Positions 6,692 through 6,823 of a stretch of 64,000 bases of DNA are shown piece by piece. Source of the DNA: a virus (lineage: Duplodnaviria; Caudoviricetes); IMG/VR virus record IMGVR_UViG_3300020576_006967, positions 1 through 64,000 of that record; one strand, written 5' to 3'. Under the pieces are notes generated by a model that saw only the letters and a list, made by a program, of their open reading frames with translations, made no database searches and was not told the DNA's origin. The translations under genes and the position numbers were made by a program. Numbering within the stretch: position 1 is the stretch's first letter; the number at the start of each line of letters is the position of its first letter.

Positions 6692-6769
6692 ATGAAATTA
6701 ACAGTTAATACTCAGCAACAACAGCAACAACCTTCCTACTATGAGGGCTGTCTGGCTATTGTGTATTAA
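6692..6769 (+). CDS. attenuator leader peptide MKLTVNTQQQQQQPSYYEGCLAIVY (Gln6)
   Basis: CAG CAA CAA CAG CAA CAA at 6713-6730, upstream of terminator and tRNA-Gln array. Confidence 0.85.
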   Translation: MKLTVNTQQQQQQPSYYEGCLAIVY

Positions 6770-6789
6770 CTAACAAATAAAACACTTTG

Positions 6790-6823
6790 AAAACCTGACT
6801 GCTCACGTAGTCAGGTTTTTTTT
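6790..6823 (+). terminator. intrinsic terminator of attenuator 2
   Basis: AAAACCTGACTGC-TCAC-GTAGTCAGGTTTT plus T tract. Confidence 0.9.

Follow-up and report, generated by a model that had tools for sequence, protein, structure and literature searches.

The window analysed here comprises the first 64 kb of a 188.9-kb virus contig with a G+C content of 32%. Downstream of a gene of 81 codons it carries, on the plus strand, a promoter, a short open reading frame (ORF) with a run of Gln codons, an intrinsic terminator, four tRNA-Gln genes and a gene for a GatB/YqeY-domain protein, the tRNA array being split by an HNH endonuclease-like gene of opposite orientation. The features, in coordinates of the window, are listed below.

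6615: end of the upstream gene of 81 codons
6626-6669, plus strand: promoter, with −33-like TTTG (6626-6629), a 20-nt spacer and −7-like TATCTTTG (6650-6657)
6637-6669, plus strand: conserved promoter block of 33 nt, ending in CGTATAAATT
6692-6769, plus strand: leader ORF of 25 codons, starting with ATG AAA, stop codon at 6767-6769
6713-6730, plus strand: six tandem Gln codons (region 1, sensing), codons 8-13, CAG CAA CAA CAG CAA CAA
6721-6751, plus strand: predicted protector (1:2) helix, in which Gln codons at 6721-6725 pair with 6747-6751
6745-6755, plus strand: favoured antiterminator strand (region 2), pairing with 6794-6804
6752-6763, plus strand: antiterminator strand proposed in the initial annotation, pairing with 6804-6814 and overlapping the favoured strand at 6752-6755
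6790-6823, plus strand: intrinsic terminator, with 5′ arm 6790-6802, loop 6803-6806, 3′ arm 6807-6819 and U tract 6816-6823
6835-8049, plus strand: array of four tRNA-Gln genes (ARAGORN and Rfam tRNA)
6835-6910, 6915-6998 and 7790-7861, plus strand: tRNA-Gln genes with anticodon TTG
7978-8049, plus strand: tRNA-Gln gene with anticodon CTG
6999-7739, minus strand: HNH/homing-endonuclease-like gene, between the second and third tRNA-Gln genes
8050-8850, plus strand: GatB/YqeY-domain gene, beginning at the base after the last tRNA-Gln gene

The initial annotation, made from the sequence alone, had recognised a leader with six Gln codons, a terminator and the tRNA-Gln genes, and all of its coordinates for these elements proved exact. 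All four tRNA-Gln genes score above the Rfam tRNA threshold (40-52 bits), and the gap between the terminator U tract and the first of them is 11 nt. Gln accounts for 2.9% of residues genome-wide, and a run of six in an ORF of 25 codons is far beyond chance; the arrangement of leader, terminator and tRNA-Gln genes in this genome is not accidental. It had further been claimed that the mixture of CAG and CAA codons matches the CTG and TTG anticodons of the array. The mixture is compatible with these anticodons, but it proves nothing: CAG makes up 18% of the Gln codons of the phage, and at least one CAG among six to seven codons is expected about 70% of the time, so that we rejected the mix as evidence of design.

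The terminator was predicted by RNAfold as a hairpin of 13-14 bp at about 6790-6819, followed by eight U, with an energy of −17.3 kcal/mol. A simple terminator scan omitted the hairpin at 6790-6823, which is revealed by RNAfold and by the orthologues described below; the omission is likely due to A-U pairs running into the U tract. The fold of the whole leader has a z-score of −4.9 against shuffled sequences.

Two copies of the 33-nt promoter block lie in the window, at 680 and 6637, where none would be expected by chance, and about 11 looser copies are present in the genome, every one of them on the plus strand. The nine remaining copies in the 188.9-kb contig run directly into ordinary genes, and there are only two attenuator units in the contig. 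These ordinary genes start 36-56 nt from the beginning of the block; the leader ATG lies at +55. The TTTG/TATCTTTG pair corresponds to the −33/−7 promoter consensus of Bacteroidota sigma-A. The pattern TAnnTTTG with a correctly spaced TTG is found at a single site in 6500-8100, namely this promoter, and the motif scan of that interval revealed no further Bacteroidota-type promoter from the leader to the tRNAs. Given the absence of an intervening promoter and the 11-nt gap, the first two tRNA-Gln genes are reachable only via the terminator. A sigma-70 pattern scan was uninformative in this AT-rich DNA (41 sites against 40 expected). In bacterial and archaeal genomes the promoter scan returned eight sites, none with a leader or tRNA behind it, two of which are ordinary Bacteroidia gene promoters.

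No Shine-Dalgarno motif was found upstream of the leader ORF, and only 2% of the long ORFs of the phage possess one. These long ORFs are instead preceded by A-rich regions and have AAA as their commonest second codon, and the leader ORF matches them in both respects. Its translation start is credible by position and context, which are like those of the real genes of the phage; translation itself is inferred.

It could be argued that the ORF arose by chance, that the terminator belongs to the upstream unit and that the tRNAs are transcribed from a promoter of their own. Short ORFs are indeed common in an AT-rich genome, and the sigma-70 scan offers no discrimination. Against this stand the conserved promoter located between the end of the upstream gene and the ORF, the shortness and lack of any promoter motif of the stretch from the U tract to the first tRNA, and the Gln run itself, vanishingly unlikely at the Gln content of this genome and kept in five other distinct sequences. 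We consider this explanation all but excluded.

The product of the minus-strand gene at 6999-7739 belongs to phrog_559 (HNH endonuclease, E = 3.5e-18). The gene splits the Gln array here, the Gln tRNAs being contiguous in relatives, and is not part of the switch; as it lies on the opposite strand, Gln read-through transcripts must cross it antisense. The product of 8050-8850 matches PF02637 (E = 1.9e-12), with its N-terminal half unassigned. The gene is likely, by inference, co-transcribed with the array and hence under the same attenuator.

Several other features of the window concern tRNA. A further HNH/homing-endonuclease gene is located at 1273-1860 (plus strand), inside a tRNA array. Stretches that are tRNA-like but long or irregular occur at 1861-2302, 3337-3414, 3689-3793, 4327-4457, 4548-4700 and 7867-7971, with weak Rfam tRNA matches at 3337-3414 and 4327-4457, and several tRNAs measure 83-86 nt and have unusual extra arms. 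Genes for an RtcB tRNA ligase (17895-19265), a GluRS-like synthetase (33922-35325) and a kinase-phosphatase with AAA_33 and Metallophos domains (38759-40303) resemble a tRNA repair and charging toolkit, which suggests a phage that expects tRNA damage or shortage.

Orthologous Gln units and sister classes

When viral contigs were scanned for the promoter core, a relative (G001; 154 kb, 37 tRNAs) was identified, and a degenerate promoter pattern recovered 59 loci from metagenome contigs. Of the 59, 26 have a short ORF behind the promoter, then a terminator and tRNA genes; four lead directly into tRNA-Met/Glu at +69, without ORF or terminator, and in two the promoter stands ahead of a PTH2 gene and an amber-suppressor tRNA. 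Other searches were less productive. Searches of viral contigs with the products of the two genes behind the array gave no syntenic relatives, a codon-aware Gln-leader pattern had no match in metagenome contigs, and a search with a Phe-class leader 24-mer returned just the one relative already known. In deposited phage DNA, matches were confined to tRNA-Gln genes of unrelated Microbacterium phages, and LR756500.1 (462 kb), the nearest deposited phage by protein similarity, contains no copy of the promoter core.

Five more distinct Gln units were identified (L027, L036/L052, L038/L056, L065 and L066). Their ORFs have 22-26 codons, 6-7 of which are tandem Gln codons, and from the stop codon it is 21-33 nt to the terminator, whose energy is −18 to −23 kcal/mol. 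Each orthologous unit has 3-4 tRNA-Gln genes side by side, with both anticodons represented, and in all six Gln versions the first tRNA begins 14-18 nt from the end of the hairpin. In the alignment of the Gln run from six sequences, codon positions 1 and 2 are invariant and position 3 alone varies (A/G), the signature of selection on codon identity. The terminator (−17.9 to −22.7 kcal/mol in the orthologues) shows five pairs with compensatory changes (RNAalifold, six orthologues). Conservation of the unit and constraint on its Gln codons are thus shown. Within the G0 subgroup the nucleotides of region 2, and with them the C-terminal stretch of the ORF, are identical even at synonymous sites, which fits a constraint at the RNA level.

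The genes behind the Gln arrays are Gln-related, being either YqeY/GatB-like or of GlnRS type. GatB/YqeY homologues follow the arrays of L066, L056 and L038. Behind the Gln unit of L036 (L036:2514-4127:+) a protein of 538 aa is encoded with the three-domain architecture of class I Glu/Gln synthetases, on the basis of which we read it as GlnRS; in L027 an ORF of matching size occupies the same downstream position and is likely a GlnRS-type gene, although ORF size is the only ground for this assignment.

Four sister classes have the promoter and layout in common with the Gln unit. For each class we computed the fraction of leader residues served by its own tRNA array, in comparison with the genome background:

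Gln class: own array 0.28, background 0.03
Phe/Val/Leu/Arg class (example, window 747-854): own array 0.53, background 0.27
Ser/Arg/Trp class (example, L064:5139-5772:-): own array 0.47, background 0.11
Asn/His/Thr/Lys/Ile class (example, L054:3809-4111:-): own array 0.57, background 0.32
Pro/Asp/Tyr/Ala/Gly/Met class (examples, L075:9673-10094:+ and L009): own array 0.60, background 0.26

Off-diagonal values, for leaders set against the arrays of other classes, are at or below background, bar small excesses in the Phe-class row, and among 120 permutations none matches leaders and arrays as well as the real pairing does. This match across five classes is shown, and it is the strongest argument for the leaders being sensors and not incidental ORFs.

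The second attenuator unit of the window (680-906) has the same promoter as the Gln unit and a leader of 35 codons in which Leu, Phe, Val and Arg are abundant, followed by Phe/Val/Leu/Arg tRNAs (932-4842). Its antiterminator forms 10 bp with the 5′ arm of the terminator (−18.5 kcal/mol). This Phe-class leader unit is about 87% identical to that of G001, while most of the two genomes have no detectable DNA similarity; the two ORFs show, by eye, two differences, both synonymous, and the terminator a compensatory pair change.

Variations on the layout were also noted. Units of the Ser/Arg/Trp class have one or two small protein genes of unassigned function (about 125 and 143 codons) interposed between the attenuator and the tRNAs; the loci concerned are L026, L048, L055, L059, L063, L064, L074 and L083. 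Met/Glu arrays with a tRNA at +69 and without leader ORF and terminator (L028, L034, L060, L070 and L003) suggest by their layout that the Met/Glu tRNAs of these phages are apparently made unconditionally. In L051 (L051:3523-3912:-) and its equivalent in L058, the same promoter drives a gene for PTH2 (peptidyl-tRNA hydrolase) with an in-frame TAG at codon 4, and a tRNA with anticodon CUA comes directly after it. This could possibly extend the leader idea to a stop codon, or else reflect TAG recoding in the clade.

Competing RNA structures in the leader

A helix between 6721-6725, within the Gln codons, and 6747-6751, which the initial annotation did not include, was predicted by RNAalifold in all six orthologues, with two pairs changed and pairing kept. 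In this leader it is extended into a larger hairpin spanning 6703-6771, and when the leader is untranslated its minimum-energy fold (−19.5 kcal/mol) keeps the antiterminator strand sequestered. By this prediction it is a classical protector (1:2) helix, in which the regulatory codons would hold the antiterminator until a ribosome arrives.

Two overlapping strands compete for the role of antiterminator. The initial annotation took the pairing of 6752-6763 with 6804-6814, the loop and 3′ arm of the terminator, to be the antiterminator. This helix exists as written: its duplex energy is −13.1 kcal/mol (RNAduplex; p = 0.037 against shuffles), and in the G0 subgroup it takes first place among 15 in the comparison with leaders of other classes. 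It holds in that subgroup only and is not conserved, the corresponding pairings in L066 (p = 0.36) and L027 (p = 0.22) being weak and at other positions. The conserved pairing is that of 6745-6755 with 6794-6804, i.e., the 5′ arm and the start of the loop, and the claim has to be corrected in this point. The duplex comprises 9 bp with two U-U mismatches (−12.6 kcal/mol, p = 0.023 against shuffles), and equivalent pairings of differing sequence are present in L066 (−13.8 kcal/mol) and L027 (−12.6 kcal/mol). Pairing with the 5′ arm is kept at an equivalent position relative to the stop codon in all Gln lineages, as it is in the other classes. Within the Gln class its p values range from 0.02 to 0.13 per sequence, and it ranks 5, 2, 1 and 3 of 15 against leaders of other classes, G0 being the fifth-ranked. 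The gap from the last Gln codon to the antiterminator strand measures 11-14 nt in all Gln lineages, which is about the reach of the leading edge of a ribosome.

These tests relied on duplex energies, computed without an alignment and controlled by shuffled and non-cognate sequences; column-wise covariation was not used for them because shifts of bulges and mismatches defeat a gap-free alignment. Of 18 units tested, 17 show pairing (−12 to −19 kcal/mol) between the 3′ part of the ORF and the cognate terminator 5′ arm. Complementarity to the 5′ arm of the unit's own terminator resides, in the four non-Gln classes, in a segment within the last 15-40 nt of the ORF (−10 to −19 kcal/mol). When leaders of other classes serve as controls, this segment comes first or second in 12 of 14 units tested, and it co-changes with the terminator arm between lineages; such lineage-specific co-variation of the alternative pairings is shown. 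By the same duplex energies and controls, 3′-arm pairing in the non-Gln classes is no better than chance. The loop/3′-arm helix is also kinetically awkward, as the 5′ arm is already free and adjacent when the 3′ arm appears. We therefore favour pairing with the 5′ arm, while the exact helix in this leader remains unresolved between the two overlapping alternatives. Support for a mutually exclusive antiterminator is moderate within the Gln class and strong in the sister classes, and comes entirely from in silico analysis.

The effect of ribosome position was modelled by masking the nucleotides from −15 to +12, counted from the first nucleotide of the codon in the A site, as the ribosome footprint, and folding the transcript as it is before the terminator 3′ arm exists. 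In this stall scan of G0, the terminator 5′ arm has a pairing probability of 0.10 when the RNA is free; this rises to 0.7 once a ribosome occupies one of the six Gln codons, whichever it is, and is 0.1-0.2 when codons 15-19 are occupied. With the ribosome on the middle Gln codon, the minimum-energy structure is the 5′-arm antiterminator. A ribosome parked at the stop codon gives a value of 0.6 through weak fortuitous pairings, and the off state must therefore rely on timing or on the re-forming of the 1:2 helix. The model is limited by equilibrium folding and by the assumed ribosome footprint and transcription start.

A rival explanation is a constitutively leaky terminator that sets a fixed low level of tRNA, the ORF being a peptide gene or a relic without effect. 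In its favour, both antiterminators are far less stable than the terminator (the favoured helix, at −12.6 kcal/mol, is modest beside a terminator of −17 kcal/mol), and the Gln-class antiterminator, taken by itself, has moderate statistical support. This explanation, however, accounts neither for codon-level selection on the Gln run in six orthologues, nor for the position of that run 11-14 nt before a strand complementary to the terminator, nor for the leader-array match in five classes. The lineage-wise co-change of complementary strand and terminator arm and the absence of terminators from leaderless arrays would likewise remain unexplained. We regard it as very unlikely.

Proposed attenuation mechanism and known systems

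Our preferred reading is that a ribosome-mediated leader-peptide transcription attenuator controls the phage tRNA-Gln array and probably also the GatB/YqeY gene. We consider this likely, in the absence of any expression, 3′-end or ribosome data. The initial annotation had proposed a Gln attenuator acting on the tRNA-Gln array, and this proposal is supported by the orthologues, the four paralogous classes and the modelling of ribosome position.

Transcription would start from the promoter at 6626-6669, with the 25-codon leader as the first translated cistron. When Gln-tRNA(Gln) is plentiful, the ribosome would pass the Gln codons and move onto region 2 (6745-6763), the terminator would form and transcription would end 11 nt ahead of the first tRNA. 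If the leader is left untranslated, the Gln codons would pair with region 2 in the 1:2 helix, and the terminator would form as well. Under slow decoding of CAA and CAG, the ribosome would stall on the Gln run and melt the 1:2 helix, its front edge halting 11-14 nt short of region 2. Region 2, left free, would pair with the emerging 5′ arm of the terminator, and RNA polymerase would read into the tRNA-Gln genes. New tRNA-Gln would then relieve the stall, closing a negative feedback loop. Termination responsive to stalling and a read-through response to charged tRNA are both inferred, as is a shortage of usable tRNA-Gln as the signal during infection.

As regards the signal, a second rival accepts a true attenuator that responds to glutamine or nitrogen starvation of the infected cell and not to a shortage of tRNA-Gln. 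A stalled ribosome cannot distinguish a lack of glutamine from a lack of tRNA or synthetase, and the GlnRS-type gene behind the Gln unit of L036 (and, judged by ORF size, of L027) could help at low glutamine by providing more GlnRS. The pheST leader is a precedent for additional synthetase being of help when an amino acid is low. On the other hand, the directly gated genes are tRNAs in six of six versions, and extra tRNA is no cure for amino-acid starvation; the four sister classes gate only tRNAs of matching amino acids; and RtcB and the tRNA-repair-type kinase-phosphatase point to tRNA damage or depletion. Starvation as the signal therefore appears unlikely.

Under a bolder extension of the attenuator reading, the Gln unit would be one of several channels through which decoding capacity is audited. 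Most tRNA genes of the clade would be distributed over five or more arrays, with a matching leader ahead of each, and sets of tRNAs would be made when those of the host are scarce, cleaved by anticodon nucleases or degraded, with the product shutting off its own synthesis. Together with RtcB and the kinase-phosphatase, this would amount to a sensor-controlled counter to host defences that target tRNA. We put this forward tentatively, and on balance would lean slightly against it.

If the attenuator reading is true, the sensed molecule is the regulated product (tRNA-Gln), which makes a direct homeostatic loop for decoding capacity, and phage tRNA arrays may be expressed conditionally and not simply constitutively. 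This bears on the question why large phages carry tRNAs: for compensation of codon usage, or for replacement of host tRNAs lost through shut-off or anticodon-nuclease defences. It can be put to a direct test, since the tRNAs monitored by the phage can be read from its leaders. With a compact size of about 190 nt, a modular build and specificity for particular amino acids, the units could possibly serve as natural codon-specific sensors of translation speed in Bacteroidota-type hosts.

Large phages such as T4, mycobacteriophages and the so-called 'huge phages' likewise possess tRNA arrays with homing endonucleases and with tRNA-repair and synthetase genes. A full-text search of the literature returned no report of phage tRNA arrays placed behind codon-matched leader peptides and terminators. 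Nor was a match to any Rfam leader family found in 6620-6834 (cmscan of window 1-10000, E up to 1), the only matches being tRNAs and chance hits.

T-box riboswitches are alike in sensing the supply of one tRNA to control read-through of a terminator ahead of genes that serve the amino acid concerned. They bind uncharged tRNA directly, without translation, by means of a specifier loop and the T-box, whereas the sensor proposed here is a translating ribosome. No T-box was matched by Rfam in window 1-10000, and the leader is only about 130 nt long and contains an ORF.

Leader-peptide attenuation is known for genes of amino-acid biosynthesis or tRNA charging, and is not known to act on tRNA genes themselves. 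In the second category are pheST of E. coli, with its pheM leader, and the His leader ahead of hisS paralogues in bacilli (PMC2965389), both of which similarly subject translation machinery for the same amino acid to attenuation; the GlnRS-type gene behind the Gln unit in L036, and probably L027, is a further point in common. These systems gate synthetase genes in cellular genomes, whereas the invariant first targets here are phage tRNA genes.

The closest likeness in design is to the classical leaders of E. coli and Salmonella (trpL, hisL, pheL, leuL, thrL and ilv). They too combine a run of regulatory codons in a short translated leader with the same four-region RNA (1:2, 2:3 and the 3:4 terminator), region 2 beginning about one ribosome edge (11-14 nt) after the regulatory codons; the phage sister units with their mixed amino acids resemble the multivalent ilv leaders. 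Glutamine is not known to be among the amino acids sensed by classical leaders, and we agree with the initial annotation that Gln sensing lies outside the classic examples. The classical leaders gate biosynthetic enzymes, whereas the phage unit, an element with a probable Bacteroidota host, gates tRNAs, its product being the sensed molecule itself. The inferred mechanism is thus a textbook one, and what appears new is its application to tRNA genes.
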